Positions 1 to 39,097 of a stretch of DNA of 39,097 bases are shown in pieces. Below the pieces are notes generated by a model. That model did not search any database and had not been told where the DNA came from. It saw only the letters and a list, made by a program, of their open reading frames with translations. The position numbers were made by a program, and so were the translations under genes. How positions within the stretch are numbered: the first letter of the stretch is position 1; each line of letters opens with the position of its first letter. Source of the DNA: Bigelowiella natans CCMP2755 (lineage: Eukaryota > Protista > Cercozoa); contig ADNK01000564.1 in the NCBI GenBank assembly GCA_000320545.1, positions 1 to 39,097 of the forward strand, given 5' to 3'.

Positions 1-44
1 TAACTTAAATTGTAGGAATGAGGCTAATACGAAAACGCTGTGAT

Positions 45-1461
45 ACCTGCGAGACATGCACCTTGCCGTCCCTCTGCTCGCCCAAGGGGGGGGGGGTCCC
101 TGGAAGGGACGATCCTCACTTGGATTCCTTCGCCATAATCCTTGCTAAAATTATCCAATTTCCTGGTTTTCGGCCCCTTATCACCAACAAGGAAATTTCC
201 AAGGGGGGTGGGGGGGGGGGAGAAGCAGAGGCAGAGAATGAATTAATGGGATTTCGTGAACACACGTATAACACACAGCTGCTTACGCCTGCATTACAAA
301 CAATGGGTGTTGAGCTGTAAAGGTGTGTGTGTGTGTGTTTGTGTGTTTGTTTGTGCTACGACAGTGCGTTATACCTGCAATTCTTTATCGGTCTTGAACA
401 TGTATAGGAAACTGTCCTGAATAACGCAGTACCGCGTCAGCATTGTCTTGAAGGTCTTACCGCGCTTCTTCAGGTATCCCGTCCTTGGCCTTTTGGCCTT
501 CTTGAACACGTGAGCACGCAGCGTTGTCTCCATGAAGCTGAATCATGATGATGATGATGATGATAATGATGATAATGATAATGAGGAGAAATAGAGCAAA
601 CCAAATGCGGCAAACAAACAGAACCAAAAAGAAAGAAAAAAGCAAGACGAGAAGAGAGGGAAGAGCGATGATACATACATACATACATACACAGCAGCAG
701 CATCAGCATTAGCATCGATACCATCTATGGTCGCTATTTTACTACTACTACTACTAGTAGTACTACTTTGTGATCTGCGGTGTTGCCTGAATCCAGTCGC
801 TGAACTCAGCAAAGGTGAGGAAGCTCTTCCCCTTTGCGAAGGTGACGAGTGTGTGGTCCAGGAGATTCTCGGCAACCAACGTCTGCGCATCGATGTTCTA
901 TGGTTGGTGGCAGCACAACAACAACAACAACAACAACAAGATGATGATGATGAAGAAGAAGAAACGGTGATGAGGAAATAAGGTGGCCAGATGCCATAAA
1001 TATTAGAAGCAATTGCACGAGAGAAAGATATTAGAAAAAAGTGGGGGGGTTGAAGTGTGTATGCAGGACAGATGGAGGCGTCTCGTTGCTTCATCATCAC
1101 CATACTACTTCTAGCACTACTACTACTACTACTGCTACTGCTACTACTACCACTAATGGGTTCTACCTCATCGTGCACATTCTTAATGTAATCGTCCACT
1201 TTCTCTGCCTCTACGAAGCTCTTGGGCTTTGCAGGAGACTGAATGAACACGTGCATCATGGATCGCAGGGAAGAGGAGGAGGAGGAGGAGGATGGTGTTT
1301 AGATGAAGAAGAACAACACTACGAAAGAGAAGGCTCAGTTGCAGGAAGAAGAAAATAATGATGATAATGATGAAGATGCAGAACCTTGCAGCATTCCCAC
1401 AACATGGGGCATCATCATGAAGGAGGGAGTGGTGCGAATGCATTGTAAGAGGATGAGAAGG

Positions 1462-1518
<57 letters not shown>

Positions 1519-2085
1519 TACACACCTGGGTAGACTGCAACTTGACGTCTTCGGTCAATTTGGCATTTACATCTATAGCTGCAGAATCATATAAACTCAT
1601 TTGGTCGATTATCGATTTCGTTGGCTATTGCTTTAGTATACATTATCGAGACACACATCCATGCGCACACACAAAAACGCCACACACATCGCATCACAGC
1701 CCTCCGTTTTGTGAGCATATGGTATGATTGGCATCGCCCACCCCACCCCGTCTCATCAGGAGGGATTCTGATCTTGCATCATCATCATGATCATCAATTA
1801 TCAATTACCTGGGGGTCTGAAAGGGTGCTGCTTTGCAGGTGTTGATGTAGCTGAGCCGCCACTGCTATTGCCAGCATTTGTTTTGTCCTCTAATTGACCA
1901 TTAGCATTGCTGTCGCCGCGTAGATTGGGGCTGGGAAAACCTACAATTATATATTTTATGATGATCAGGTCGGTTTCCCCGCTGCTTCTTCAGTTGTGTC
2001 GTGCTTGGTCATTCACGTTATTTGGCAGCACAAATAAGAACAACCTGTCTTTGGTTTCCAGCTCCCAAGTTCATCTTCTCCTTTG

Positions 2086-2126
<41 letters not shown>

Positions 2127-3295
2127 ACAGACAGTAGCAGCAGAAGCAGAAACAACAACAACAATAGTGTAAGTACTAGCACCACCACCACCGAGCGATT
2201 GGGAGACTCGATAATTGGTCAAACAATGAGTGCAGTTACGCTGCTGCTATGAACAAGGAAATAGTTGTGGTGCATAGGAATATTTGTGAGAAGGAAGACA
2301 CATGCGAGGGAGGCGAGGCGTCATTCAGAGGGCCGGCCCAAAATTTCTCAAATAACTTTTGTGTTTTTATTTTTGGTTGGTAGGGAAGGGGGAGGAAGCA
2401 TAGTGATTGGTGGATGGGCGGTTGCGACGTATGATAATATTAATTATGGGATCGAGGTTTTGTAGGACGTTAGAAGATGAAGATGATAAAGAAGAAGAAG
2501 AAGAAGAAGAAGAAGAAGAAGAGGTGAAAGAGGGGGGGTGGAATACAAGCCCATTCGATTTTATAGTTTGTTGTTGTTGATGATGATGATGATGATGATG
2601 GCCCCAAAAAGGGAATTTCCATCGGCAAAAGAATACGCACACGTTAGTATTCGCATATCGATCGATATTTCGTTGTCGTCATCGTAACCTCACCTTGGTA
2701 CTGGTAGTGTCCATCTTGGTCAGGGACGATTGCACGCTCGTAGTGCTCACTTGCCGACTCACGCTCTGTCGTCATCAGATGTATAATATAACGCAATCCT
2801 CATACTATTATTATTATTATTATTATTATTATTATCATTATCTTGGCAGTATGATGAATGCTTCCTCGCCATCCATCTATCCATCTATCTATCTATCTAT
2901 CTATCGTTTTAATTATTATTACCTCTCTAATGTCATCGTGCTGCAGCATTGAGTACACCATAGTCCGAAGCTCATCAAGGGTGATCTGCAGCAATGGTGT
3001 TTGTTGGGAAGTAGTAACAAAAGAGACTGAGCACAAGGTGGAGAGAGGTTCCAATCTTACGTGTTTGTGTTGATGTATGTGATTGATGATGTGCTACGCT
3101 ATGAACATTTCCGCATTTATTGGATTAAACCCACGGTAGCCACCTTGTCATTCGAGCGCAGATCAAACATTTTAAACAGCAGCTGTATTTTCTCCTGGTT
3201 AGAGCCGTTTAAGAACCTAATAATCCAAAAAGCCATTTAGGTCTTGCAAGTTTGTATCATGCATTCATGTTGTGTGTGTGTGTGCGTGTGCGCGC

Positions 3296-3336
<41 letters not shown>

Positions 3337-4165
3337 AACAGATAGGAAAGAGCGATCGAGAGACTATGATCTAGACCAAAATTACTACCGCGTGATGCCG
3401 GTGAGAAATTCTTCTAAGTCGATAAGGTTGTTCTAAGTGGATTTGAAGGAAGGAAGGAGGGGAGTGAGTAAGTGAGCGTGTGTTCTAAAAGTCTTGCTCA
3501 TTTCCTTACATACATGCATACAACAGGCATGCAGAGTAACACAGATCAATCATCTGTGATGCTCGAGGAGGTTATCGCCCAGCGATTGTTGCTCAAAGAA
3601 CCAAAGCATACGACAAACACGACGAGATAACATCCGTCTTCCTTCCTTGCTTCACCTCCGTGACTTAATGATTGTGAATTCACCTTCTTGGTATCGAATG
3701 CGTCGAATAGCCGTTCCCCAAACATGCCTTCGCAAGAAAACAATGATGTCATCCACACAATACGTAAAATTGCTTTTCAGATCATTTTCTTCCTTGTTCA
3801 CTTCTTCTTCTTTCTACTCTCTCTACTTCTTCCACCACTACCACGGAAGTCCACATAGTTCAAGAACGTCTTCTTGTCCATCGTACGGCCTGGCGACCTC
3901 GATGCAAGCCCTGTGGCAAAACCGATCATTCCAAATGAGAGGGGTGCGTAAATTTGGTTTGAAATAAATGCCATGATGGAATAAATGCTATGATGAAATA
4001 AATGCTATGATGACTAAAACAGATTGCTAACTCTAACGGGAGGGCTTTGTCTGAAGCGTGTTCACAAGTTCGTTTATTACCATCAAAAACGTTCTCCAGG
4101 AGCCTGGCCTCCAGGACATCCATTCCAGCATACACATCAGAACTGCATGAAGGAGAGTTTCCCAT
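45..4165 (-). CDS. N-myristoylated EF-hand + PH domain protein, CDPK7-like architecture (multi-exon; 3' part including any kinase domain lies beyond the left edge)
   Basis: Spliced minus-strand exons read MGNSPSC...ENVFD|GLASRSPGRTMDKKTFLNYVDFR|GMFGERLFDAFDTKK|NNLIDLEEFLTGITR|FLNGSNQEKIQLLFKMFDLRSNDK|ITLDELRTMVYSML (calcineurin-B/recoverin-like EF hands). Exon 767-897 reads LTFAEFSDWIQATPQIT. Exon ~375-538 reads RTGYLKKRGKTFKTMLTRYCVIQDSFLYMFKTDKELQ (start of a PH domain). These joins are GT-AG and in phase. MGxxxS-C suggests myristoylation plus palmitoylation. Exons left of ~375 are uncertain. Confidence 0.8.
3961..4011. repeat. 17-bp x3 minisatellite in intron 1 of the EF-hand/PH gene
   Basis: GAAATAAATGCCATGAT / GGAATAAATGCTATGAT / GAAATAAATGCTATGAT. 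Confidence 0.9.
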
Positions 4166-4510: not shown

Positions 4511-6044
4511 ATGGGCGACTACTACCAGGGTACTGCTACTGCTGTGCTTGGTGTGATGCGTGGAGGGGTGCATGGGGAATCGGACAGAGAGGGGATAACG
4601 CTTCATTGAGGATTGAAGCGCAGCAATTGATGATTCGCTGAGGAATGACATTTTGACTGTCCCCTCCCAGAAGGCATGCTCAACGACGAGGAGAATGAGG
4701 AAGGGTCGGCACAAATCTGAACGGCAAGCTGCAGTTATGGATCTCACAATTTGTCTATTATTGCCTCTCATAGGAGAATGGATTCTGTTCGTGTATCCCG
4801 TCCCTCCTCAGTCCCGGATCTCCTAAACTCTCTCAAATCGAATCTGAGGTGTGCTGTAGAGCTGTTATCACCCGCCCGATTTTATGCTAACAAAGACGTT
4901 TATATTTATCTAGGGAACTATGTCTCCATCATGCAGGTGCCCCCCCCCCCCCCCCCTCTCTCTCTCTCTCTCCTACGTACCATTCCAAAACATATTATAC
5001 TACCAGGGATAGATCACAAAGGCGCCGAACTCATAGCGGACAGTCTCTCAAATAAACCCCATCTTACCAAGCTCTCTCTGGCCTTCAACCGATTACGTAT
5101 CGTACCGCATCATACGCATCTTCTTGGCACACAATAACTACAACCTAGTTCCTCACAAGTCATGCTAATAATAAATAAAACACCATCGATCACAAGTGGG
5201 ATAGATGGGTTGATGGAAGCTTTTGCATGTGAGACATCAGTCGTCATATTTATCAGCTACTTGTTGCATCAGTGTCGTCTATGTGTGCACAGGAGACATG
5301 GGCGCTGCAGCACTTTCACCATTATTGATGAAGAAAGACTCCCAACTACGATATCTTAACCTCGCGAGAAATCATATTTCCTCCCAGGTAAGAGAAGCAG
5401 CAGCAGGGGTATTAGCTGCAGTAGTAGTAGTGGCAGGAGCAGCAGCAGCAGCAGCAGCTGCACGGATCGACAGCACGATGACGATATAAGAGAGGCAAGA
5501 TAAGGATGAGAAAGAGAAAGGGATTCTTTATGAGTTAGAGACCGTTGGTTGTAATTTCTATTGTCTCCATAATTTCAGGGCTGCATTGCACTGGCCAAAG
5601 GGCTAGCGCAGTGCACAAACCTTCAGCATTTGGATCTCGCGGAGAATAAGATTGAGGACGATGGAATCATCAGCATCATCAAAGCCGCCAAATCCAAGGG
5701 TAGTAGTAGTAGTAGTAGTAGTAGTAGTGTCGGCGGTTGAGTAGTAGTAGTCTATTAGAAGTCGTCAATCAACCCTAATTGTCATCGCCCGAATCTTCGT
5801 CAGTCATCGCAGCTGTGCTCCTCCTCCTCCTCCTCCTCCTCGTCATCGTCGTCCATTTACTATAATTACTTCTGACTGAACCATTGATCATCATCAGGGT
5901 GGAGATCGTTGGTCCTATCTAAAAACCGAATCAGTAGGAAGGGGTTCGGTAATGGCATCATCACAGATCATCAATCATCAGAGAAAGAGAACACACAAGA
6001 TAACAAAAGACATAGGACGCCAAACGCGCAACCACCTACTATTT

Positions 6045-6083
<39 letters not shown>

Positions 6084-6292
6084 TCCCTCTCTCCCCACTT
6101 GTGTTAATAGCCCATGCTTGATATTTATCGATAGATGCAATTGCGGGTTTGGTGCGTGATAGCACAACGTTGGAATCTCTGAGCCTTTATCTCAACGGCA
6201 TAGATGTACAGGTGGTTTTGTTGTTTTGCCAGTTTTTAGTGTCGTCGTCGTCGTCTTCTTCTTACACCGCAGCAGCAGTAGAAATATGTTCC

Positions 6293-6329
<37 letters not shown>

Positions 6330-7086
6330 ACAGCACTCAAACACGCTACCAAGCATCTCGCACAGCATCATCGCTGCGCATTGACCTCTCTCCCATTGTC
6401 CTCATTCTCCACCACCACCACCACTACTACTACTATCTGCTGATCAACTTACTACTCCTTGTGGCTTAAATAACAATCCCCCAGGGCTGCATCATGATAT
6501 CAGATGCAGTAATGCGGAATACATCCCTTCGGCACCTGGATTTGGGTGCGAACCCTCTTGGTAATAGCATGATATAGAAGTGCTGCTCAAAGCTGCTGCA
6601 TGATGATAGTGGTGGTTACTTGTTCTCCATCGTCCTTGACTTCATCATCGTCGATACCCCTCGCTAATGGCGGCGCTGGTTTGCTATCCTTTGCTCGTTT
6701 GCTCATCATAGGTGCGCATGGAATATACGCGCTAGCATCAATGCTGGCAAGGAACAGAACCCTGCAATCACTTGACTTAAGAGGCACTGACCTATGTTAC
6801 GTCCTCGAGGTAGAGTCGATCGTACTTGCAGTAGTAGACTACTACTACTAGTAGTAGTAGTAGTAGTAGCAGTAGTAGTAGCAGTAGTAGCACCAGGTAT
6901 GGCCTGATAATATAGAATCGCTTTCACTCTATCCATGAGCTATAGTCGTACCTTTCTGTCGGACTGTGCTCATTAAATAGCTGCTGTAGATGTTCTTCTG
7001 TAACAATTATAGAGGAATTAGTGGGATATGATGTATGGAAGGAGGATGATGGTGATGACGACGATGATAGGAAACAATTAAATAAT

Positions 7087-7154
<68 letters not shown>

Positions 7155-7931
7155 CACACATTATATTAATCTTAGGGTCCCCAATCAGTGCTGCAATCTG
7201 CGCTACCATCTTCCGATAATAAGACAAATAGTACAGCACCCGCTTCTTCTTCTTCTTCTTCTTCTTCTTCTTCTTCTTCTTCTTCTACAACTCCTCCTCC
7301 TTTTCCTCCTGCTGCTGCAGTTGCTGGTAGGTCAGCATCTCCATCGTCACCAACCACCAACACAATCTCCCCTCCCGCACCAGCTGCAGCAATTTCGACT
7401 CCTGAGCACTACTCGCCGCCAAAGAAGGTGGATCTTATAACAGTCAGTCTGTCTGGGGTTAAGCGTAACGATAGATCACGATGATAACGCTCATGGTGTT
7501 GATGATGATGATGATGATTATTATTATTACTAAAATCATAATTATCCTACTACACAATTGCCCGAGACAGCAGCGGAACTCGTTCGGCGTCTTGAAGCTG
7601 TGCGAAGAACTGGGAAAGCCAGGCTGCCAGCTGAAGCATCTCCTCCTCTCTTTCAACCTCTTCGGTGCGCTAAATGCGGAATGATGCGAGATGTGATGAT
7701 GAGTGACGAATATTGATGATGCTGTGAGAGAAGAAGGTAGAAGATAGGTGCTTTTGGTCGCCTCCAAAGACGCCGTTTTATGTGTTGTTGTTGTTGGTGG
7801 TGTTGGTGTTGGTCTTATAGATGACTACAGCCTCCGGCATCTATGCCAAGCAATTCAGCAGGTGCAGCGATGACGATGGTGATGATGATGATGATGATGA
7901 TGACGAAGATGATCTATAGGATATACAAATT

Positions 7932-7969
<38 letters not shown>

Positions 7970-8661
7970 ATTATGTATATATTCACATATGACATCAATC
8001 CATCAGAGCCAGGTTGAGGTGCTCGATCTAGTCAATTGCGGGATTACACAAAAAGGCATGGAGGACGTTGCCAGTAAGTGTTAGAAATGATCCAAACGGA
8101 CGATGAAAGGAAGAGGAGAGAAGAGGAGGACGAAGGCGGGGGGGGGGGATTGAAGAGAGGCACCATAGAAACACGTATTAGAATCGATGATATTAACAGC
8201 ATCACCCCATCCCATTCGTCACGATAACAACAGAGATGATATCGACTGCCCAAGAGTCTCAGCGAGGTGGATATATCCCTGAATACGATCACAATGAAAT
8301 CGGCACGACTGATTGCCCAGAGTTTACGTAAACACAAGACGCTCACCAAACTAGGTCTCATTCAGGTACTATGACTATTATTACTACTACCATTACTACT
8401 ACTACTACCACTACTACTATTACTACTACTGCCCGGTGTTATCATCTCACTTATGCTGTGACTTTCTATCTATATACTATCTAACCATGGTGCCTACTGC
8501 TTCTTCTGCTTCTGATTATCATCGCCATCTTCATCGCCATCATCATCATCATCATCAACAACAACAACAAAAACCACAATAGTGTCGCCTAAGCGAGGGT
8601 ATCAGTCCCATATTGGCGGCTCTCCCTCACAACAACTCCCTCAGGTTGTTACGTCGTAGGT

Positions 8662-8695
<34 letters not shown>

Positions 8696-8809
8696 GTAAA
8701 TGGGTCGAGAAATGCTGCTCTTTGGTTTTCTTCATCATTATTACTGATGCTGTTGTTGGTTGTCGTATAAAGAGAGAGAGGAGGGAGCGCAAGGAGTAAA
8801 TCTTATTTG

Positions 8810-8854
<45 letters not shown>

Positions 8855-10882
8855 TTCCTCTTCCCCTTACGTGTTCTCTCTTCCTCTTTCATTGTTGCGG
8901 CCATACGCGTACAAATATTCTCAGGACGATTCTACTTGGAGGAAACCTCCTGCAAAAGCAGCATTATGCCGATTTAGCCGATAAGCTCAAGGTGCGCCAC
9001 TACTGCCTACTACTACCACTCCTCCTTCTCCTACTACTACTACTAATACTACTACTATTTCATCAGTAATAGTACCCATAACCACCTCCACAATAAAAAC
9101 AACTATTACTACTACTACTTACTGCTGCTACTACTACTACTAATACCACCACAGAAGAACACAAGCATCGAGAATCTTGGTCAGCTTGTTTGCCGGTATG
9201 TATGTTGTAGGAAGACAGTAGCAGTAGGCCCTTTATCTTATCGATCTGTCTGATGACCTCTTGTTTTGGTTCGCCCCCTTCTTCTCTCCTCGATTTTCTA
9301 CGTCGTGTGTGCGTTATAGCTGCTCACGATGCGCGTGCAAGACGCTGCAGCACAAGTATCGATGGCATCTTCCGGTAGCGGTAGCAGCAGTAGTAGAATT
9401 CTTGTAATTGGTGATGGTGATAATGTTGTTAATGCTGTCGTTATCTACCACGTACACGTCAATGTGCTTCACGATGCGTGCGGCTATGAGCGGCGATCGT
9501 TGTTTGAATTGATGTTACGTCGTGTTCCATCCTAGGCCGTGGTCGCTAGCACCGCCGTTGATAAAGTACCCGGAAGCAGGAGGAGGATGATGATGATGCG
9601 GAGGAGGAGGAGTAGTAGTAGTGGTGGTGGTTCAACGTTGACATCAACAACGACGACGACGACGACGACGACGACGGCGACGGCCCCGAGTAGTAGTAGG
9701 AGGAGGAGGAGGAGAGATGCTAGTAGTAGCACGAACTCACCAGAGCAGCAGCAGCAGCAGCAGGACTTGAGGATATTGTCACGTGGAGTCTCGGGGATGG
9801 GCTCGGAGGGTGGTAACCAAAAGTCTTCCTCTTCCTCTTCTCCTTTTTCTACTTTTTCTTTAGCACTAAAAAGACACCAGGTAGTAAGCAGCAGCAGCAA
9901 CGGCAGCAGCGGTGCAGCAGCAAATAACGACGACTCTAAGAAGAAGAAGACGATCAAGAATGGCAAGGACGAGGAGCACCGAACTGCGTTGTCGTCCTAC
10001 CGGATACGTAGCAGCAGCGGTGGTGGTAGTGACGAAAAGAGCGCTGAAAGAGATGTAGGGAAGAAGAAGAAGAAGAAGAAGAAGAAGAAGAAGCCTCCTT
10101 TACTAATGAGTGCTCCTGTGTGTGGATTATCTCAACTTTCCAATCATTTTTTAAATTTTGAAAAGAAGCTACTGTCACAGCACCAACCTCACCACTACTA
10201 CACAATCAGATGGCCGCCCCTTCTTCCTCAGCAGCGAGGAGAACAGCAGTAGCATTCCGGGTGCAAGAAAGCAAGTTTCGGAGGATGGAAGGCAACAACA
10301 ACAGCAGCAACAACAATATCAGCGGCTTCAAGACAACGATGATGACATATAAGCGGGAGACGACAGGGGACTGCATCGAAGCCATGCTCATAAGAAATCA
10401 ATTTGCCAACAGAATGTAATGTTAATGCATGCATACAAGAGTGATAGAGAATTAGTGGAAAAGAGGAGAACAATAGTCAAGTAATATGCATGTATGATCA
10501 CTCGTGTGTACGCGTGCGTGTGTCTCATTAGGGATCGACGAATGGCGTTGATGTTGGGCTTGCACAAGCGGGTGGGAGAAAACAGCATTCTCTACGAGAT
10601 CATGGTACTACATTTTCCCGACTTAATTGCAATAGGACGAAGGGGGGTAAAAAGAGGACGTCGGGGAAGAGAAAGAAGGGAAAGAGGAAGAGAAATGATG
10701 TTGGAGACATCATAACAATGAATCACGATGTAAAGAGTAGAATGGCTGCTCTTCTCTAGATGTTCTATCTTGCAAATTAATTTATGATTCTATGATTTGT
10801 TCACGTGCTATGATGATAGGGCCAGAGCAAGATTCTAGAAGCAGGCGTGTTTGAAAGCGTATTTGCTTATGCGAAAATATGA
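4511..10882 (+). CDS. Leucine-rich repeat protein, ribonuclease-inhibitor/NLRC3-like 28-aa LRRs (~20 exons)
   Basis: Exons give LRELCLHHAGIDHKGAELIADSLSNKPHLTKLSLAFNRL, LRYLNLARNHISSQGCIALAKGL, LQHLDLAENKIEDDG, LESLSLYLNGIDVQG, LRHLDLGANPLGAHG, LQSLDLRGT, LKHLLLSFN, VEVLDLVNCGI, LSEVDISLN, LRTILLGGN. The C-terminus reads RRMALMLGLHKRVGENSILYEIM|SKILEAGVFESVFAYAKI*. There is one apparent 1-nt frameshift near 8250 and an unresolved low-complexity exon at 9536-10414. The start could also be 4424. Confidence 0.8.
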
Positions 10883-11922: not shown

Positions 11923-12819
11923 TTATGCCTGGGCTAACCTTTCAAATAAATGAGATAGATCTACAACGTGGCCTTTCCCAGCCTGAACAAAGTAGCTATT
12001 TGGATGCCTAAGCTTGAAATTCGAAAATATCTTTTCATATCCTTTGTCATTAGAAATAATGCAAAATTGCTCAAAGTTTGACATCATCTTTGCCTCATAG
12101 AGGAGCATCGTAATGACATTATCTGCAAGTTGTTTACCCTTTCCAACACACAAGAATTTCAGCTTGTTCTCAACCAGGGCAGTTGCTATCTCACTTGTTA
12201 GCTTTTCTTGTGTCACAGGGCAAAGAAGTTGGTAAACTATTAAAACCAGGTAATTTTCCCTAATTTTAGCAGCCGTTGAATCCAGCCTTACATTATCCCC
12301 ATCTATAAGAATAATGCCTTTGTAGTGTTCGAGCACATTGTAATCGAGGGGAAGTTCCAGATGATTGTCACGAACAACACCTGGACACTTACCCCAATTT
12401 CTTGCTTGATTAGCTGCAAGTTGTGGTTTCATGAACATTAAATCTACACCTAGCGATGGCATCTCTTTCTCATTTACCATCATTTCCTTGACCTTCGCTT
12501 CTTGAGATAGCATCTGCTTCAACTTCTCCGATTTATCATGCCCATTAAGCTGAGTTGGCTTTGATTCGTATTTTGTGGACAGATTTTCGCTTTGATCTAC
12601 CTTGACTTTCCATTCTGTTGACTCTTGCTTGTTCCTCACGTTGTTATTCTCACTATTTTCATTTTTGCTTGGCTGGGAATACTTGGTCACATATCTGATT
12701 GTCTCCCTAGGTGATATCGTAGAAAGCGATGATCGAACACTTGAAAGCCTTGTGAATGTGACCGACTTGAAAGCAGGACGCAGAGAGGAGCTGATTGATT
12801 TCCGAAGCAGCATTTGCAT
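11923..12819 (-). CDS. Intronless PIN/NYN-fold (LabA/DUF88, PIN_7-like) ribonuclease with predicted mitochondrial presequence
   Basis: Uninterrupted ORF (track 11923..12924; first true ATG at 12819). It carries the motifs IILIDGDNV, GKGKQLADNVITMLL and FCIISNDKGYEKI, matching the acidic motifs of PIN/NYN domains. The N-terminus MQMLLRKSISSSLRPAFKSVTFTRLSSVRSSLSTISPR is R/K/S-rich with no acidic residues. Confidence 0.75.
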   Translation of the reverse strand: MQMLLRKSISSSLRPAFKSVTFTRLSSVRSSLSTISPRETIRYVTKYSQPSKNENSENNNVRNKQESTEWKVKVDQSENLSTKYESKPTQLNGHDKSEKLKQMLSQEAKVKEMMVNEKEMPSLGVDLMFMKPQLAANQARNWGKCPGVVRDNHLELPLDYNVLEHYKGIILIDGDNVRLDSTAAKIRENYLVLIVYQLLCPVTQEKLTSEIATALVENKLKFLCVGKGKQLADNVITMLLYEAKMMSNFEQFCIISNDKGYEKIFSNFKLRHPNSYFVQAGKGHVVDLSHLFERLAQA

Positions 12820-14187: not shown

Positions 14188-14223
<36 letters not shown>

Positions 14224-26051: not shown

Positions 26052-28938
26052 CTAATTCTCCGCTTCCGTCGTCGTAGATGGATTCCAATCCTCAGCGATG
26101 TCTAGAGCCACCTATGGTTGAGACAATGGGTATGAAGAAAACTTGGTCAATTCATCATCTTACTGGACATGCTTTGCGCGCGAAAACCAAGAAAAAAGTA
26201 ATATTAAAGTAGTGAGGAGGTACCAGGCAGCTCTCTTTCACAATTTGCTGTTTATCCTTCACGTAGCCCTCAAGGATTTTTACCGCCTCTGTGCTGGATA
26301 TGCTCCCCAAAGCCTCAGCCTTTACGATAGGGGGAAGGGGCAGAATAAAGGGGAAAGGGGGGGGGAGGAGTAACGAAACTGGTTACGATATTGCTTGCGC
26401 AGACATTTACTGAAGAGGAAAGGCGAGTATATTCAGCGGAAGTCGTTGCAGTATTAAATTGAGTCTTAAATAATACCACTTTGGGATGTTCACGTCGATG
26501 ATCATAAACCAGCACAAACGTTCATGATGCATGCCGTTGTATTCTGGCTACTAGTAATTTATTACCGCCTCGTGCCTCACCATGGAGTGCTCCTTGTCAT
26601 TTTCCAGCACCTGAGAAGCGAGAAGGAGGAATCGCAAATTGAGATTTCGCGCCACGTGTTATTTCTCTTTGTTTCATACTACTGTCCGACACCATTGTGC
26701 AATTTCTTATCAGGTCTAAAAGAAAGCCTCATATTTTCCTCGCTGTGTAACTCCCATACGCCCCCACCCCAGCCCGCCCCACGCTACGTTGATTCTACAA
26801 CTGGTGCTAGCATCACACCACCTTTTTAAGGTGCGGTATGGAGGCCTCATGGCGCATTTGTCCCATCACATAGGCTATCTGTATTTTATGAGTCACGGGT
26901 GTAAATATTTCAAATCTCACAATGATGCAGTACTATAAGCAGCAGCTGTAATTCGGATAAAATTTGCTGCGAGCGAGATTTGACAGATAGATCAACCTCG
27001 TGGCGTACGATGGCGCTCTTATCCTCAAAAGCCACGGCCAAAGCCTATATACAAGCGAACGCAATTATCAAAGCCTCATTTGCTTTTGCTTTTCCATCTC
27101 ATCATCCATCATCTTCTCCTAATCGATCGATACTAGCACTATCAGTAGTAGTACAGTGGTAATAGTAGTAAGTAGTAATAAAAGTGTACAGCTGCAGGAA
27201 CGACAACATAGCAGCTTCTAGTAAGTAGTAATAGCAGTGATCTTTCTTCTACCTTAACCGCTTCTTCGGTGCCAAGATCACGCAGTGCGAACATTGCACG
27301 ATACCGATGGAACAAGCCTTAAATAACAGAATTGTAAACTTTGTGCATGCGCCTGAGGCTGTCTTATGTGTTGTTGTTGCTGTTGTTGTTATGTAGTATT
27401 ATTCGGTGTGCCTACGCAATCATCAAGGTAATCGGAGTAATACGGACAGATATGTGGAACACAGACACCATTTCCCTGCACCCCCACATCCCAAATTCTC
27501 TATCAGAAGTACTATCTCCCCCTCACCCCGCCCCCACCCTCATTCCTGTCCCTTACTTATCGTGGTATCGGTGAGTGTCTTTTGGAGTTTCTCAGGAGAC
27601 GTTTCGCCTTCCTCAGCGGGGGCTGGGTCTACAGATAGGTATTTGGATGATGGCGCATCATCCCCTGTATAATAATATCAGCACAATAATAATAATCTAG
27701 TGAATAATGATGATGGTGATGATTATGATGATGGCATACTTGTGGTCAATAAACAGCGAACATATAAAGCTACTAACCATCGTTCTCCGCATTTTCCTTT
27801 TTCTTCTTCTCGGCCAGTGCAAGGCTGTGCTTAATGGTATCTATGGCAAGTTTGCAGGTCTTGAGGTAGGAAAAACAACAAGATCGAACGACGACACGAC
27901 AGGACAGAAGCAAAATTACCGTCTTGAACATGCACAATATGAAGAAAGAAGAGTATCGTTTATATCGCTACCTCAGCTACTTCTGTGACTTTCGAATCTT
28001 TGTATTTTTCCAAAAGCTGGTAAGGAGGCACAAGGGTTGGATTCATTAGAATATAATTATCATTGGTCTCAGTCCCTCTCCTCTGTACTCTCCCCCCCCC
28101 CCCCCCCCGATAACAACCTCGATAGACTTCTCCATGCCAATTGCTCCAAGAGCTTCAGCCGCCTTCCAACGGATTTATGACTTAGGAAATCAATTGATGG
28201 CGAGAAGAAGGAAGGCAAGCAGCAAGCACAGTACAATTATTACCTCATGTCGAACGACGGGATGCGCCTTTTCGTCCTCAAGGACAGCGTTTAGTACTGG
28301 CAGAGCCTGCGGATCCTGCATTTGACCTGTAGTTATGTACAGTAATTCAACCTGACATCACCAAGTGCTGTCTCTCCCAAGAAATAATAAGCTACTTTCG
28401 TAGCAGCAGTAGAGAGGAACATTACTGTTGTGTTCAGTATGGTGTTTAATGCTGACCGAGAACGTAGCATATCTCATGATTTAGCAGAACTGATTCGGAA
28501 ACAAGACCTCCCGCAAGCGCATCTATCGCCTCCTGCACATGCATTGACAGAGAAGAAGCGTTGCACTGAGATGAAATTCGTTTATACGCACAAGCTATTG
28601 CTACCTTCCCGCCGTGCATCTTGAGGTAGAACACGGTACGCATTCGCTTGCCAATATTGCATTTCTAAGTTATAATGCAGGATGAGTATGATCACTAGGC
28701 CTTTCAAGCTCCATGCCACGCGTCTTCTCAGAGTAGCGTGGTTATGAATAGGAGCAATTGTTTTAACTCATATACGGCTAGCAGCACTGGACTCATGACC
28801 AAGGAAGAAGAAGAGGGGGAGTTTCAGAAAAATAGATATTCTCCAATTCAGCGATCAGAAAATTGAAGATAACATCCTACAGCAGACCGGGTCCTTGAGG
28901 TCGTCTCGGAGAGTTCGGATCGGCGGAGGGGCCTCCAT
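26052..28938 (-). CDS. DOHH: Deoxyhypusine hydroxylase (HEAT-repeat diiron enzyme)
   Basis: All four HE motifs are recovered across in-phase GT-AG exons: LLNHEICYVLGQMQ, VVRHE|AAEALGAIG, IVRHE|IAYVMGQM, MVRHEA|AEALGSI. Also RMRTVFYLK, EVAE|TCKLAID, YLSVDPAP, FHRYRAMFALR and VKESCL|VALD. Confidence 0.95.
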
Positions 28939-29561: not shown

Positions 29562-30560
29562 ATGGCCCCGGGGAAAAAAAAATCCGATGTCGATTACCTC
29601 AAAGGGAGTTCCTCACAAAAAACCGGTAGCATAATATTTCAACGAGCTAGATTCCCTTCTTAAAATAAACCCACCCCAATTTGGCCCCCTTCCCACAGTT
29701 TTAATAGAGTGTGGGAGTAGTAATTCTCAGGGTGTTTTCTTACTGTTAATGCATTTGATATTTCCAGCAAGGAGAGCGCAGCGGAGGTTGCAGAACTTCA
29801 TTTACATGGAGCAACAGAAGGTAAGCAACGTTCTGATTGAATGTGGGATAAAAACCAAAAAATGTAGAGCCTCGTGCAGGGGAGGTAAGTGAGTAATCTG
29901 TCAAGGGTAGTGGTTGTCAAAGTTAGAGCTCCATAAGATGTAATAGTGATATCCAGATACGATTCTTCGTTTACTAGTACTACAGGATAAATATCACGAT
30001 TTCTCGCCATGAATTCTATAATTCACTTCATTTAAGTCAATACGCTTTATTCACTCTCCCTTGCTAATAATGTATACCAACAGGAAACCATGACTAATGC
30101 GGTAGTGCGCCTTACGGACAAGTGCTTTGGCCTTTGTTCGGTAAGAATTTCTCTAGTAAAATCAGTAAATCTGCAATGGAAGCATGGTCAACAATTTTTG
30201 TTAAAAGGCCCTGCCTTTAGAGCTGGATAAGGATTTTTTAAATTTGTTTTTTTACTTATTTTACATCGATATGTCCTCATCCTCGCCTCCGCAGACCCCG
30301 GGAACGCGAAGGTCTAGAACTCTTGACGACTGCATGACAAACTGCTCGAATAGGTAGTGAAATATCTTCTCAGCGTATTCTACCCATATTACTGATGCGG
30401 CGGTGGTTCGTCTGGATTATTGAGACATTTAATCTTACATATATCACGCACATTGCTTTTCAGATATGTGGAAGCCAGCATCCTCGTCCTAAAAACGATT
30501 GGTTCTAAAGTGAACAAGATCGACACGGACCTAAAATACCTCTCGAAGCCACCAAAATGA
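29562..30560 (+). CDS. Small Tim mitochondrial intermembrane-space chaperone (Tim8/Tim13-like, twin CX3C)
   Basis: Exons read RRAQRRLQNFIYMEQQK|ETMTNAVVRLTDKCFGLCS|TPGTRRSRTLDDCMTNCSNR|YVEASILVLK...PPK*. The twin CX3C motif and LQxFIxxEQQK resemble Tim8. The start is uncertain, with possible upstream exons from ~29045. Confidence 0.8.
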
Positions 30561-31375
30561 TTATGGTTTGCTGTAATTTCTGAAGAACGATGGAGAAGTT
30601 TGAACAAAATGGGGATGTACAATTAGATCAGCGTGATGGTGAAATGTCGTCTTCGTTGTGGGATTTCATGCCACCGCTATCGCTATCATCTTATTGTATG
30701 TATCCAGCAATGCATCTTAGAACCGTCAATCTTGATTCCTGCCAACGTCATGTCACCGCATCGTTAAATGAAGCGCGCAATATAAGTTATCACGCACGCT
30801 TGTTAATATGTCGAAAGACAACATGCTCGCCAACGCTACAGCATGTATGTGGCCAGCAGTAACTGCGGCATAGCATTGCATAGCTATATTAGGTTAACAA
30901 TTGAAAATTTCTGATTTATTCATTATACACCCGTTTCATATATGGCCAAGCTAGCAAGCTGGCAAGCGCATGCATATCAGTCACAATTATCAGTATGTGC
31001 TATAAACGTTGTGTATACATGAAGTGCAGAAACTAACAGATGCAATCCAAACGCTGTAGTCACCACTTTATTGAATAGCTACGTTGTTATCATTAATGTG
31101 ACGATTGAATAAAATAATTGTCGTTCATTACTACATCCGTCTCAGTCAGTCTGCAGTGGAATTGTTGGATACGTTGTGTTTGTATATTTGTTGTCACATC
31201 ACATCTATATTATGCATCAGCGTATCGTACGTAGCAACAATACATGGTGGAACACAAATGCTTAGTATTATTATTGCAACCATTGCTATAGCGATTGCAT
31301 TCGAATTTATATCTGTTGCGGGAACAAATTAATTTCATCATATAGCTGTGAGTCACACATACTCTCTCTCCCTCA

Positions 31376-32995
31376 TTATGAATCTTTACTGTCCTCCTCT
31401 CTGCATGAATCTAGAGTCCCACAGAAAGATTCAAGGGAATTGGCCAAATCTTCGTCGTTGAACAGATCTCTGGTACTCTCTACCAACGCCCGCCCTACAA
31501 GCCCTCCGGAGAAGCTCTTAACACGTTCTGACAGGCGAGGGTCTAGCTTCTTCGAGATTGCGTTGACGAATCGAAAGCCAATCGCCGTGACTGCCGCGGA
31601 GAAAGGGAGAAAATAATCCTTTGAGTACCCGATGAATTGCCGCACCTCAGAGAAGAAATTTGCCCATGAAAAGCTAGATGTGAAGCTTTTGCTCCCGGAG
31701 CTGCTGTACCAATGAGTCGAATTGTATCTGTGATAGACTTGCGCTACGAGTAAATGCGAAAGATCGCACGACCGCAGAAACCCCATCACAACCTTAACGT
31801 CCCTTGCAGCCTATATCAGAGTATTATTAGAAGAGCTGGTATAGAAAATCAAGGAAAAAAATCTCTCAGGCTAATCTCTGTAGGGTTCTACTGACCATTT
31901 CGCACAAATTCCATCCTGTATAAAGGTTTAGAATGAACCGAAAGTCGGCATCTTCGAGCTTTAGTACACGTTCACAATCTGGAATGCTTCTTTCTCGGCC
32001 GAACGGGAGGCGCTGCGACGCGGCCTGAAGGACCTCTTCCTCATAATTAGCATCGCTGGTGGCATCCATAACTATGTGCTCAAAGCTGTAGTAACTTTCG
32101 TCGATAAAATACATGGGAACGATGAACGAGATTGTGAAGATAAACAGGACGCTGCTCAGCAGGCCTAACACAATTGTCGCTGAACTAGCCGAAAAATTAG
32201 TTCCGGAGTCTCTTGACGCAAAGAGGAATATTTGGAGCGGCTGAGCTCCCAGAGCCATGAATGCAAGAGCCATCGACATGTACACATCTTGGTTGCAAAG
32301 AACACCCCAACTGTACCTGGTGTAAATCCGTGTTGACTTTATCACAGATAGGAGAGACTAGCAACACTAACATGAAAAAAAAATTGGCCTCTGAAGTAAT
32401 AACAATACGACCCTCCCTCCTCTAACTACGTAAATACCTCCAATCTAGAAAGGCCAACAGGGCCATTCCAACCTGCCCTAGACGAAGGGAGACAGACTTT
32501 ATCCTTCCAACTAGAGGAAGCTCGACTACTTGTCGTTCATAACAGAAGAATATTTCTGCCTGCAAGCAGCGTTGGGTAAGAAAATGTCAGTTTCCCGAGC
32601 GCTGCTATATTTCCTACTACGGTGATATATCTAAAGAAATAAAATATTTTCGATCCCTCGCCATACAGATAAATAAACCGATACATAGGACAGGAGAGGG
32701 TGAGTGAGTGAGAGAGAGGGGGGGGGAGGGGGGGGGGGGTATTTGGGTGATTGCTTGATAATGAATAAATGAATTTACCAAGCTGTGCAGGAGGCCTGGG
32801 ACCTCTTTGATAACCGAGTGATAGCGCATAACCCACATGAAACGCGTTAGTCCTTTCGGGAGTACTTCAGGAGAAAATTGCCACCATAGCAAGCCTAACG
32901 GCGACGTAATGTAAAGTTTTTGTTAGTATCAAAATTGAGAGTGTCGTGTGTGTGGATAGCATAGAGATCTATTGGACATACGACGTATAATAGAG

Positions 32996-33028
<33 letters not shown>

Positions 33029-34044
33029 GTGTATAAGATCTAGTAATACGGCATCGTATTTCCAATATAAAACCAGGCATGCAGCTCAGTGTAATATCAC
33101 GCAAGGGCCAGTGTTTTGGCAACCTAAAGAGACTCCTCTCAAAATAAAAGAGGAGAACCATTGTGAAAGCAGAACTCCAATATTCTGCTGACGTTTTTCG
33201 GGTCGTTTGGGATCGTCCAAGATACGCAACCAATAGCTGGAAACCACCACTATGAGATGTATCGCCGCAGCCACGAGAATCTCTTCTGGAGAATTCAGTG
33301 TGCTCGCGAGAGTGCCCCAAAACGGTGCCATCCGGTGAATAAGAACTGAGCATACATGGAAGAGGGTTAGGGGTTCAGGAATCTGTTCGTCTCGGCAGCA
33401 ACAGTACAAAGTGGTACGTTTTTCTGGCGGCATAGCTAAACCTTTACATGACAAATCGCTTCCTACCAATCAGAATATTTCGTATCAGCTCTTCCCAGCT
33501 AAGCGAGAGGCCAATGCTGTCTCCTCCATGTTGCTTCTCAACAGCTGTCGACTCCGAATCATCCCCCTCGCTTTTGGACTCCTTTGATTTCCTGGCTGAC
33601 AATCTCCGAAAGGTTTTAATTCTGTTTCTCAGTTGAAAATTGCCCCTTGCTTTCTTGTCAGATAAGGTGCCTCTAGAACCGAGTTCAGGGCTCAGTCCAT
33701 CGTGATTTTTGGGTTTGGATAGCTTCTCCGAGGCTGTGCTCATTCCCGCATTGATCAGATGCGGCCTGAAGCTTGCACAGATGAATATTCAGAGTCTTAG
33801 CCCTGGCAATGATGATTCGGGAAGGGAAAAAAGATTTCCTTTGCAGACAATGGTCCAGTTGCAACCGTTTCGGCAACCAGCTTCCGCCGCTGGGAGATAA
33901 TAAGAGTCTGCCGACCGTTTCGAAATTCCCCGATGTTGCGCGAAAATCGGCAAGATTGCTGTCAGAAGCGGGCCAAATCGTAGAGAAGGAGAATACTCGT
34001 AGAAATGTTTGCCCAACTTTATGATGAGATGATGTGAACTGCAT
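31376..34044 (-). CDS. Hypothetical multi-pass membrane protein (multi-exon)
   Basis: Chain of long non-repetitive minus-strand ORFs joinable by GT-AG introns. Hydrophobic segments include ILVAAAIHLIVVVSSYWL, SAFTMVLLFYF, MSMALAFMALGAQPLQIFLFA and ATIVLGLLSSVLFIFTISFIVPMYFI. No family was recognised and the 5' structure is uncertain. Confidence 0.55.
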
Positions 34045-34751
34045 GCCTTTTTTTTAGACTGACTTTACTTTTTTTTTCAGGAAACCAGTCTTGTTTCTCA
34101 GCGTGTTCCCAGGAGAGAAAATCAACGACTCGTAGATCTACTACAAGTACTGGGGAGCCGACTGAGGCCAGAAAAGTAGTGCTCAAGAGCGCACTGTTTC
34201 GTCTTTTTTTGGTACCGAAAACATCTTAAAACGGATTCACCAAACGACAAACGTGCTCTCAGATGCACGCCTCGACTCGGTCCTCGTCGGTTCCGAAGCC
34301 GGCCCGCCACATCCACTACATCGAAGCCCTCGCCAACGAACGACTCGGCTGTGGAGAGACGACGGAATAAGGCTTGTGGTGCTTCTTGACTGCCAAGCGG
34401 ATCTTCCCACCACTTCCATCACCACCACTACCGGCAGTGCTCCCCGGGAAGTTTTGGCATAATGGTTGTCTGCTGCTTTCAGGCGTGGCGGCCTGGTCAC
34501 TACTTGCGACTTTGTTTTGAATGCATGCACTTGTTTTGGTCAGGAGATTAATGCGTACGAGACGACATTCGTACTCACTCTAGTTCTCGTCGCCGTAGGT
34601 CATGGATATGTTCAATCCTTTTGAATCTTAAAGAAAAACAACATGAGAGGGGGGAAAGCAACCAACAACAAACCCCCAGAAATCAACAACCCTGGAAACA
34701 CATAGGGGCTTTTCTTCAAACGTTGTCATAATTACCACCACTATCATCGTT

Positions 34752-34789
<38 letters not shown>

Positions 34790-34801
34790 AAAAACCAACA
34801 G

Positions 34802-35828
34802 GCTTGGGCTTGGACACACTCTGTCGCGTTGATCCGCACACATCTCCCCATACAGCCAGCGCTCATTATCGGGTTATAACATGTTGTTGGTTGGGGAGAA
34901 AGGGGAACGGGAGGGGAGAGGAAATATGATTCTGAATGATCGGATAATAATTAGGGAAGAATATTATCCGTGTTTCGTCATCATGATGCATCCAGGATAC
35001 GTATGCGAGGGAGGGGATAAAGCCCACTAAATAATGAACATAAATTATCATAAATTGAAGAACAAGGCGGCATTTGCTCTTTGCTGAGATTTTGATCATG
35101 TTTATGATGACTAATTCCAAGGGGGGCGGCAGTCAAGCGAAGCACCCACATGGAGGTAAGCTCGTCATGAATGCCGCAATTTAAATTACGCACACACATA
35201 CACAAACACACACACCACCTGTCAGAGAGGGGGGGGGGGGGGAGAAAAAGAGAGAAATGTAGTTGTGTACAAATTTTACGTGTTTGTGTGAACAAGTAAG
35301 TATCAAATCAAACTTCCGATCTGAAGGAAGGAAGATTAACAAATACGTGCCAACGAATCAAATCATTCTATCTTCTTCATTTGTATTTTTCGCAGTACTT
35401 GGTCCAAACAAGGACATCGAGGCTTTTCGATGGCTGCAGGTATTTCAACTCCTCTTCTACGTGTTTCCTCTAATTACCTTTCTTCAAATGGAGACGACAA
35501 CAACTGACCGATGACTTAGATGATAGTGAATATTCATCAGTTCCAGTCGCAGTTGCCTTCATAAACATTTCCTCCCTGCCACTCCCCCATGTATAGGTGC
35601 GATACCTTCTGATCTGGGCTCTCGCCGTCTTTGGGGACTGGCTGCAGGTGTCATCTCTAGTGAGTGGATCGAGAGGAGTAATGAGAAGGAAGGCCGATGG
35701 AGGAAGCATCACCAACAGAGATGCATCTTGCTTACCTTGAACGTGATCCTTTGTTATTTCTGTTGGCGTTTTCTTCTTCTTTCCCTTCTTGTACTTTTCC
35801 AGGGGCCATACGTGTACAAAGTCTACCA

Positions 35829-35869
<41 letters not shown>

Positions 35870-36666
35870 CTTGCGTAAGAGAGAGACAATAATCGATACT
35901 GCTCTTAGCGATCAATTCTATATTCATCATCATCATCATCATCATCTTCTTCTTCTTCATCATCATCATCATCATAATTTCTCATTTTGAAAGGCACGGG
36001 TATGATCGAATAGAGATTCAGAGTCTCTTCGTGACAGGATGTCTCTCGGCAGCGATTCTTGGAGCTCCAGCGGTATTACGACGTGCTCGTTGGCACACAC
36101 ATCCCTCGTATTGTCCTCTTTCCATCGCCATTCTGCATTATCATCACCATCATCATTATCACCATCATCTTCTATTTCTTGTTCTCCTCCAGGCGGGATT
36201 GGCTGATTTCGTGGGTCGAAAGAAGGTGGTGATGGCCTATTTCATGACCTATGCAGCCTCGTGCTTCACATACCACTTCCAGGTCGCCGTAGTATGTCGT
36301 AAATAGTACCAGTAGCAGTAGTAGGTGTGGTACTATCCCCTCGGCGTCGCTGTTGCTGATGCTGCTGCTACTTTTCCACTCTTTAGCAAAGCGTCCCTAT
36401 TGTTATAATATCAAACAAGTATACATACGGCGGTGTACCGAAGGGACCCTCAGCTATGAAATTCTGTCCATTTCATTATTTTCCCCCGACTACTCCGCAT
36501 TCACACTTGTAACGCTATGATCGTCGACATCATCTTCGTCATCATCATCATCATCATCATCATTCGTAACCAAATAAAGAACATGTGGATATTGGTACTC
36601 GGCCGCATTTTGAGTGGAATCTCTCAGTCGCTCCAGTGAGGCGACTACCACTACTACTACTACTAT

Positions 36667-36698
<32 letters not shown>

Positions 36699-36848
36699 CT
36701 GTTATTATTCGACTCTAACAATAGAACTCCAAATAGCATACATAGCACATACGTACACACAAACACGCACGTGCACATACATGCATGCATTCGAGCATAT
36801 TTGCTGCACTGCATTAAGGACGTAGACAAGTGCGTGCGTGCGTGCGTG

Positions 36849-36885
<37 letters not shown>

Positions 36886-37412
36886 CTCATCGGATGATCT
36901 CTTCAGGTATTCTGTTTTCGAGTCGTGGCTGGTGAGGAGGCATAACACTGAGGTAATATCATCACTATCATCAAAATATCTACATGTACTTCCTATCATC
37001 ATCATTCTTATGGCATTACTATAATCGTTGCCAGGGGTTTCCCTCGGAATGGATCAGAGACACCTTCAAGAAGGCCTCGTAAGTTGTGTCGGCGAATCTA
37101 AACCCTACCTCATATGAACCAAGATCAGAGGAGAGAGGAGCGCATGCGTATTTTGTGCATGTGCGCGTGTGCCCATGTGTGTGTGTGTGTGTGCCCATGT
37201 GTGTGTGTGCGTTATGTGTATATCGTAAGAAAAGACAATGCCTGTGCCCTATGTGTGGTGTAATTATGCACGAGCTACTACTAAGCCTACATCACTCCAA
37301 GATGATTCCTCATTAGTTTTTATTCAATTTTATATTTGCGTACGTTCCCATTCACTCGAAATCGACGATGGTAAAGTCCCCCTGCCCGCCATCTATGAAC
37401 GTCGTTGTCGTT

Positions 37413-37450
<38 letters not shown>

Positions 37451-37730
37451 AGGATGGTTACCGGGATCGTTGCGATACTAGCGGTCAGCACAGCATGCGT
37501 CGTTTGATGAGCAAACAATGACTACAAGAAAGAGGGAGGAATAAGAGAGGATTGTTGATAGAAGAGTGTGTGTGTGTGTGTGTGTTTTGGATTACGACGA
37601 CAGAGGTCATCAATTTTCTCACTAATTTTGTGGTTTCTTTGGACAATATAGGGCCTTCTAGCACAAATGATGGTGACGAATACGTCTGCGTTTGATGTCG
37701 GTAGGGACCCTTAAGTATGACGACGACAAC

Positions 37731-37761
<31 letters not shown>

Positions 37762-38603
37762 GTGAGAATTACGATGACAAAACATACACAATTGGATCAA
37801 CGCGGATACTTCCTAAATTTCTTCATTTTTTACTGCTTTTATATGTAGGTAGGTAGTAGTAGTAGTAGTAATAGTAGCCTGTATTCCATTTCCCAGTCAT
37901 CATCATCATCATCATCAACAACATCATCATCATCATCATCACTGCATACGATCATAATGCCTTGGTATGGTTATCTTCTGTTGGTTAATCCCTGCTGCTT
38001 CTGCTCCTCATCCCTCCTCCTCCTCCTCCTCTTTAGGCGTGGTGAGCTTTGGAGAAGAAGTCGCTGTCTTTGAACTCGCAGCAGCAGTCTTACTCTTCGG
38101 TTGTCATCATGCGAGAAGAATACATGTGTTAGATAAAGAGGAGGAGGAGGAGGAGGAGGAGGAGGAGGAGGAGGAGGCGGAGGAAGCAAATAACAATAAA
38201 AACGTCGTTGCTGTAGCTGTGTAGTGAATGCGGTCGTTGATGGATGCTGCTCCATGATTCTGTCACTTCAACGAATGAATTACGACACTTCCAGTTTTAA
38301 GCTGCTTCGTGGCAGAGCCTCATCAAATGACCATTATTGATTCGTCTCCCATCTGCCCCCCTACTTGTGGGCTGACCTTAGGTTTCGCGTGCACATGGTG
38401 GTTTTGGGAAGAGGAGGGCGACGCTGCTCCGATGCAAAGGCATAACACCAGCTTAAACGCAGACGACATCGATGACGATGACCTAGATGAGGACATGACT
38501 TTAGAATCAAAGAGGAGTTATCTCAACGGTATGTACGATGATATCCGCACATATGCTTCTCAGTCATTTCGAATTCCAGTGAGGCTGGTGATGATGAGGA
38601 TGC

Positions 38604-38644
<41 letters not shown>

Positions 38645-39097
38645 ATGGGGATGATGATCTGACAAAGGAAAATGGAGAGATCGTTCTATCCTAGTATCGT
38701 ACTCACATAAAAGGCCAAAGCAACGTAATTCAGACATCCGAAATGTTACCCCCCTACCCCCCCTGCCCATATGGACGATGAGCAACTTGGATAATAGAGA
38801 CCCACCCCCCTTCATCTTGTTAGAAAATCCTGGAAGATGTAGGTTATCGATCTGCTCAAAGTTAGGTAAAGCTGTGCCTTACATAGAGAGAGTACCAAAG
38901 TGTGGTGAAAATGATGGTAGATTGATTGATTGATAGATTGGTAATAGGTAGATAGGTACAAAGGAGGTACAAGAACTAGCTGGGTTGGGAGGGATAATCC
39001 CTGCTTTTCCTCTCTCTCTCTCTCCCTGCTCTCTCTCTCTCTACGTACGTAACGTAACGTAACGTAACGTAACGTAACGTAACGTAACGTAACGTAA
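34802..39097 (+). CDS. MFSD5: MFS transporter, molybdate-anion transporter family (MFSD5/MOT2, DUF791); runs off the right edge, start unresolved
   Basis: Exons read FRWLQ|VRYLLIWALAVFGDWLQ|GPYVYKVYH|..IQSLFVTGCLSAAILG..|AGLADFVGRKK..|ILVLGRILSGISQSL|QYSVFESWLVRRH..|GFPSEWIRDTFKKA|..GIVAILA|GLLAQ. DWLQGPY and SxFESW are family signatures. Confidence 0.88.
39047..39097. repeat. (AACGT)n pentanucleotide array running off the window end
   Basis: About ten perfect units following a (CT)n tract. Confidence 0.95.

Follow-up and report, generated by a model that had tools for sequence, protein, structure and literature searches.

Convergent gene junctions in a Bigelowiella natans window share a strand-symmetric sequence class, with CTAG islands in three of four

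Introduction

What marks the places where neighbouring genes run toward each other? This question is raised by a 39,097-nt stretch of Bigelowiella natans DNA (the window, to which all counts below refer), in which ten consecutive genes lie in the order - + - + - + - + - +, with four convergent gaps (C1 to C4) between their tails. The DNA is nuclear, the last exon of gene 4 being 100% identical to the EukProt protein jgi/Bigna1/86436, and the window was picked for its alternation pattern. A first-pass annotation had described a feature in these gaps that proves to be real and more sharply defined than its account suggested: all four gaps carry a strand-symmetric sequence class of two layers, and octamer-amplified CTAG islands occupy three.

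Knowledge of how polymerase II stops and avoids collision with a neighbour comes from few lineages, none of them rhizarian in the literature searched. A visible sequence class at convergent junctions would offer a way into the study of termination or boundary formation in the rhizarian supergroup.

CTAG islands in the convergent gaps

Measured from stop to stop, the gaps span about 1503 bp in C1 (10420–11922; up to 1670 bp, since the stop of gene 2 is uncertain), 1283 bp in C2 (15533–16815), 844 bp in C3 (25208–26051) and 815 bp in C4 (30561–31375); the range of about 0.8–1.3 kb given earlier fits C2, C3 and C4, but C1 is longer. They hold 28, 34, 19 and 1 CTAG, respectively, with z values against dinucleotide shuffles of 10.3, 12.5, 7.5 and -0.4 (computed on the first-drawn gap boundaries). 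The claim that CTAG crowding in three of the four gaps is unmatched elsewhere is thereby borne out: 19–27 per kb versus a mean of 1.86 per kb in non-gap DNA, where the richest of 39 tiles of 800 bp reaches 6.25. The best 500-base interval contains 25 CTAG, compared with at most 8 in 30 shuffles. Against the trinucleotide expectation, CTAG is found 164 times versus 97.9 in the gaps (both strands) and is under-represented elsewhere (0.65); it is also the top residual tetramer of the gaps (z 6.6, with TATA at 1.9). The word CATGCTAGC has 12 matches, every one in C1–C3, where 0.43 were expected. Outside the gaps, CTAG also favours 6-base palindromes (24 of 57 versus 14.9 expected).

The islands extend over approximately 10990–11625 in C1 and 15890–16555 in C2, and the density in C3 peaks at 25536–25712. 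CTAG is concentrated toward the gap centres, its median position being 0.63, 0.50, 0.48 and 0.48 of the gap length in C1 to C4, and 11 of the 82 copies are 250 nt or less from a stop, versus 34.5 under uniform placement. C4 has no island, and its sole CTAG, part of a GCTAGC at 30950, is at the middle of the gap. Searches for the island pattern returned 28 loci in metagenome contigs, none with the microsatellites or make-up of the window, 7 loci in genome contigs, prokaryotic by title, and 121 viral stretches at background level.

A composition shared by all four convergent gaps

The second layer is wider. In C1–C4, rho(CC) is 0.50–0.62 (lowest other tile 0.71), rho(GC) is 1.44–1.88 (highest other tile 1.32), and CATG plus TGCA reach 19.6–32.8 per kb (highest other tile 17.5), so that each gap exceeds all 39 tiles in the latter; the islandless C4 is CC-poor and GpC-rich like C1–C3. 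The signature is found in four of four convergent gaps and in none of the five divergent ones (1 in 126). The proposed distinct sequence class therefore holds within the window, although a CTAG island accompanies it in only three of the four gaps. When each gap was held out in turn, an order-2 model ranked it above all 39 tiles in four of four trials, and an order-1 model did so in three.

The first-pass annotation was also right that long microsatellites are missing here: none of the 50 perfect microsatellites of at least 20 nt falls in the convergent gaps, where 5.7 were expected. The CC-poor signature begins 100–300 nt from the stops, in the probable untranslated region (UTR). The GC content of the gaps is 39–44%, CpA/TpG is high (rho 1.27–1.48), and CCAG is not raised (16 versus 21.7). 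TpA is not depleted (rho 0.85–1.21), and TpA hypermutation was rejected on this ground as the cause of the islands.

Structure of the islands

Exact 8-base tandem copies occur five times in the 2.1 kb of islands versus 0.18 expected, each containing CTAG, and five times in the other 30.8 kb; allowing one mismatch, the islands contain 14 versus 1.6 expected. Tandem duplications are absent at periods 7 and 10–12, and period 9 has one. CTAG spacings of 8 and 9 are in excess (19 versus 8.1, p 0.002). Since CTAG stands 4 bases from CATG in 12 cases, the islands look like a decayed lattice of CATG/CTAG octamers. Octamer runs reach 2.4–3.5 copies, and the flank-match profile is flat (17, 13, 15 and 16 of 22 at distances 1–4), which fits slippage rather than centred transposon target duplications.

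The gaps share no alignment beyond short word matches, the longest shared words being 12 nt. A miniature inverted-repeat transposable element or other dispersed repeat was rejected, as between-gap alignments among the matches listed are below 50 nt at about 75% identity. Nucleosome positioning with a phasing of about 10 bases was likewise discarded (CTAG spacings of 10 and 11 number 6 versus 4.9). Folding is stronger than in dinucleotide shuffles (z -5.0, -4.0 and -3.4), but against 4-let shuffles z is only -1.5, -0.8 and -1.8, and long hairpins or cruciforms were set aside. Perfect palindromes of at least 10 bp are in modest excess (20 versus 10.5, p 0.009), mostly in C1.

Position relative to mRNA

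Gene 5, downstream of which C2 lies, has transcript contigs of 1595 and 1629 nt and a coding length of 1257 nt (418 codons), which leaves at most 372 nt of UTR and therefore places at most 6 of the 34 CTAG of C2 inside its mRNA. Relatives of gene 3 leave 226–388 nt beyond the coding part and those of gene 9 leave 247 nt. The C2 island, the only one that could be placed, is thus mostly beyond assembled mRNA; the outer CTAGs of C3 are near enough to the stops to fall in UTRs.

Strand alternation and divergent gaps

The alternation reported earlier stands, all nine junctions switching strand, with nine strands supported by databases and that of gene 8 read by eye. Genes 1, 2, 3, 4, 6, 7 and 10 have Pfam matches on the strand expected. 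The minus strand of gene 5 follows from a transcript-derived protein mapped from 20145 to 16819, and that of gene 9 from a 62% identical relative (P0006) spanning at least 33566 to 31385. Database searches gave nothing for gene 8, whose strand was taken from four GT..AG introns and twin CX3C motifs. No missed gene that would break the order was found: none of the 10 gap open reading frames (ORFs) looked up, out of 20 that begin with ATG and have at least 50 aa, matches the protein collection. Among 19 gap frames, one has Pfam matches, both weak; a tRNA scan of the gaps gave none, and all 35 Rfam matches score below the gathering threshold, and the only one inside a convergent gap coincides with an AT-rich duplication. 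A small spliced gene may lie in 20150–21430 or 33742–35097.

The probability attached earlier to this order, (1/2)^9 or about 0.002, was overstated: the null is wrong for a compact genome and takes no account of the selection of this window by its pattern. Alternation amounts to 66% in Cyanidioschyzon, 65% in Monosiga, 63% in Cryptococcus and 61% in Thalassiosira (PMC2871058, Table S1), and under these rates nine switches have p 0.012–0.023. The window thus shares with the compact eukaryotes of that survey an excess of head-to-head and tail-to-tail neighbours; its nominal 95% lower bound of 72% alternation is above the survey maximum but comes from one pattern-selected window. A head-to-head bias is also on record for long intergenic noncoding RNAs (PMC4739763).

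The divergent gaps, measured between start codons, are about 610, 438, 1284 and 622 bp, and that between genes 9 and 10 is about 230 bp by eye (at most 1356). The earlier statement that they span a few hundred bp does not fit the gap of 1284 bp. The median intergenic distance in B. natans is 960 bp (PMC13746701). The longest divergent gap (20146–21429) contains a (CA)17 run along with canonical splice signals on the minus strand (21374, 21182 and 21118), which together suggest that 5' UTRs are spliced there or that a transcript has escaped annotation.

In the one expression table consulted, partners in a head-to-head pair are not uniformly co-expressed. Table S3 of PMC12730881 gives six consecutive expressed JGI models, C_100241-246, around gene 4; across 13 time points, successive models correlate at 0.92, 0.69, 0.21, -0.07 and -0.38. 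Among 14 models of the neighbourhood, pairs that are not adjacent show a median of 0.21 and a 90th percentile of 0.77. Only model 242 is tied to a gene of the window, and the direction of the model order is not fixed. In the forward mapping the head-to-head pairs are at 0.92, 0.21 and -0.38, that is, one tight pair and no general rule, and the lack of uniform co-expression holds under either mapping.

A possible two-way termination zone

Starting from the composition, central position, 8-base tandem copies and mutual non-homology of the gaps, we suggest that their centre may be a shared, strand-symmetric two-way termination or buffer zone for converging transcripts, a reading that we hold tentatively and with slightly less than even confidence. 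Transcripts of both polymerases would be cleaved and polyadenylated within a few hundred bases of the stop codons. The polymerases would next enter the island, where clustered CTAG/CATG words, bound on DNA or on nascent RNA, would release them; these words, being identical on both strands, could be used from either direction. Island size would be set by slippage, through the addition of 8-base copies, and a promoter shared on one side together with a stop zone shared on the other would favour alternating orientation. Of the roles listed in the first-pass annotation, a terminator appears the best supported, judging by position and by analogy with yeast; the evidence gathered lends no support to a modified base, an insulator or an origin. 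The lack of microsatellites counts in the same direction because unconstrained DNA in this genome might carry them.

Between convergent yeast genes, clusters of palindromic Hrp1 sites (UAUAUA) terminate transcripts coming from either direction (PMC3875857; 10.1101/2022.11.02.514956). Both these bidirectional zones and the B. natans islands are clusters of self-complementary words, readable on two strands, between convergent genes; yet the word is TATATA in yeast and a CTAG/CATG octamer here, and the islands are five times wider. We propose by analogy that they may work like the yeast zones without being members of that class. Short inverted repeats are also found near yeast poly(A) sites (PMC6420913); these share the enrichment at gene ends but are AT-rich and located at the cleavage site, whereas the islands are CTAG-centred and lie in gaps of 39–44% GC. 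In Dictyostelium, convergent gene pairs are chromatin loop anchors (PMC11754127), so that convergent junctions are special there too and possibly form boundaries, but their spacers are short and the available part of that paper describes no sequence code for them.

Several points weigh against a termination zone. C4 contains a single CTAG, so that the word is not required. The yeast zones measure about 120 bp and lie on overlapping 3' UTRs, but the B. natans islands cover 600–700 bp and, in the 1283-bp C2 with its short gene 5 UTR, are mostly past the mRNA; this UTR estimate assumes near-complete contigs, and the contigs, which belong to other isolates, are possibly short at their ends. Folding into hairpins is mostly accounted for by tetramer content. 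The compositional ranking has n = 4 gaps, and the 39 tiles were also in the background training set of the order-1 and order-2 models. Finally, the window has no tandem gap, and 'convergent-specific' is therefore indistinguishable from 'downstream of any gene'.

Alternative explanations

The main rival is that the islands are a neutral by-product, which we consider rather unlikely: the gap centre, the only DNA that is neither transcribed nor promoter, would drift to the mutation, repair and slippage spectrum typical of untranscribed DNA, with 8-base self-complementary units expanding unopposed. The excess of octamer copies, all with CTAG, agrees with this, as do the loose relation of island size to gap length, the islandless C4 and the non-homology of the gaps; B. 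natans has, moreover, the highest AC-repeat density among the rhizarians compared (PMC13746701) and a context-specific mutator (10.64898/2026.01.13.699255). However, the gaps lack the usual microsatellites, the CC-poor signature begins already in probable UTR, and the alternation is left unexplained. Were the islands neutral, they would record how untranscribed DNA mutates and slips in an alga known for a TpA-specific mutator. Footprints of hAT-type transposons, whose repeated insertion and excision at TA-centred 8-base targets would have multiplied CTAG, would account for the specific 8-base period, the target duplications of this family being 8 bp (PMC3942097). We regard this origin as very improbable: a centred duplication predicts flank matches at distances 1–2 only, but they are flat over 1–4; the runs exceed the expected two copies; and neither an element nor shared ends appear among the matches listed. 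As for chance combined with selection, that is, a mild genome-wide orientation bias with three islands in convergent gaps by luck, the nine switches are not extreme at survey rates, the window was chosen for its pattern, and all three islands fall within 4 of 9 gaps with p 0.048. Yet the signature separates convergent from divergent gaps completely and the islands are centred, and there is little probability in this account.

The remaining candidate is an island of modified bases or silent chromatin, where a DNA-modifying enzyme would target CTAG or its TpA core and mark the junction. A dense palindromic tetramer is the form that methyltransferases read. The kinetoplastid precedent is base J, a glucosylated hydroxymethyluracil made with JBP/JGT enzymes and a mark of convergent strand-switch regions; the likeness lies in a mark confined to places of converging transcription. 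The analogy drawn earlier does not hold for genome layout, since kinetoplastids have long one-way arrays (98% of Leishmania genes are co-directional; PMC2871058) but here every junction switches. Nothing in the window speaks for a system of the base J kind. In B. natans, a TpA-specific process converts TpA to TpG/CpA in viral inserts (10.64898/2026.01.13.699255), and CpA/TpG is indeed high in the gaps. TpA, however, keeps its frequency there, the opposite of the mark of such a mutator, and CCAG is not raised. No B. natans methylome was found in the papers examined; PMC5890265 and 10.1101/2024.10.28.620566 do not name the species in their main text. We give this candidate scant credence. The available text of PMC9998398 has a single mention of a B. 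natans DNMT6, and a histone survey of the species describes one silent state with H3K9me3/H3K27me3 (10.1101/2025.03.17.643675).

A much broader proposal, which we think improbable, is that the B. natans nuclear genome consists almost wholly of two-gene units (alternation of at least 85%) and that CTAG/CATG octamers encode the boundaries where their tails meet; a dedicated protein, either DNA-binding or base-modifying, would recognise this code and halt RNA polymerase II arriving from either side. Such a sequence-encoded boundary would be undescribed in any eukaryote. The first-pass annotation knew of no description of a CTAG-palindrome code at convergent junctions, and a full-text search for Bigelowiella together with CTAG agrees, returning none. 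Among papers listed for gene orientation, for methylation, polyadenylation and transposons, or for CTAG at convergent genes, none was seen to describe the islands; the supplement of the 2012 genome paper, which was outside this search, could report gene orientation.

The sequence class might serve as a terminator part in transgenes of chlorarachniophytes, and annotators might read strand and gene end from it. Public B. natans data comprise the genome, RNA-seq, assay for transposase-accessible chromatin sequencing (ATAC-seq), kethoxal-assisted single-stranded DNA sequencing (KAS-seq), Hi-C and histone data. The published ATAC-seq locates open chromatin almost solely within 2 kb of starts and is too coarse for these gaps (PMC8887012). 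Neither that study nor the histone survey takes up convergent gaps in the parts consulted.

Gene content and additional observations

Domains were assigned by a Pfam scan of 89 exon-sized frames, in which most scores are below the curated cut-off because single short exons were scanned. Gene 1 (1–4165, minus) encodes a PH-domain protein, with PH at 372–542; its ATG at 4165 was chosen by eye, and its 3' end is outside the window. It is followed by gene 2 (4778–10419, plus), a leucine-rich-repeat protein with LRR_6 at 5573–5737 and 6470–6574 and a stop somewhere in 10252–10419. Gene 3 (11923–12819, minus) is a single-exon PIN-domain protein (PIN7) with an identical EukProt protein, P0001. Gene 4 (13258–15532, plus), a C2-domain protein, is JGI Bigna1 86436 (P0005, at 100% identity), and its model name, C_100242, reads as scaffold 10. 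The SIN1-like gene 5 (16816–20145, minus), onto which P0007 and cluster members were mapped exon by exon, has SIN1_PH above the cut-off and a 5' untranslated exon extending to at least 20343.

Gene 6 (21430–25207, plus) is an alpha-kinase with Alpha_kinase matches in three exons and a stop at 25188 or 25207. Gene 7 (26052–28938, minus), with HEAT_PBS/HEAT_2 in three exons, is a HEAT_PBS-repeat protein that we take to be deoxyhypusine-hydroxylase-like. Gene 8 (29562–30560, plus), assembled from ORF fragments, encodes a small twin CX3C protein, presumably Tim-like. Gene 9 (31376–34866, minus) is a membrane protein without known family; P0006 maps from 33566 to 31385, and the part above 33741 was drawn by eye. 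This relative has about 150 extra N-terminal residues, which fits by-eye exons up to about 34866; the single upstream by-eye exon compared with it gave no alignment. Gene 10 (35098–39097, plus) is an MFS_5 transporter, with MFS_5 at 35893–36303 and a 3' end that is not resolved.

Within the gaps, an oriented element about 35 nt long recurs on the minus strand of C3 and C4 (25770–25800 and 31110–31145); its core, GAGACGGA, has four matches in the window versus 0.71 expected. Read in the sense direction of genes 7 and 9, it follows their stops by 230–260 nt, and a weaker, shorter match is at 16674–16681, 135 nt below gene 5; the element may be either a signal for 3' processing or what is left of a repeat. 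The left side of C2 has a 55-base tandem duplication at 15787–15893 (1.9 copies, 94%) with AT-rich palindromes. In C4, a 90-codon ORF (30590–30862) begins 30 nt past the stop of gene 8 and has no Pfam family or match in the protein collection.

The window ends in 11 copies of the pentamer ACGTA (39043–39097), probably the edge of an assembly gap. The end of gene 4 (14768–15532) contains a Trp/Tyr-rich repeat unit without a Pfam family, and the paralogue Bigna1 89630 has more copies of it. Genes 3 and 4 (11923–15532) have few, short introns and one microsatellite, and the introns of genes 1, 2 and 10 are laden with repeats.

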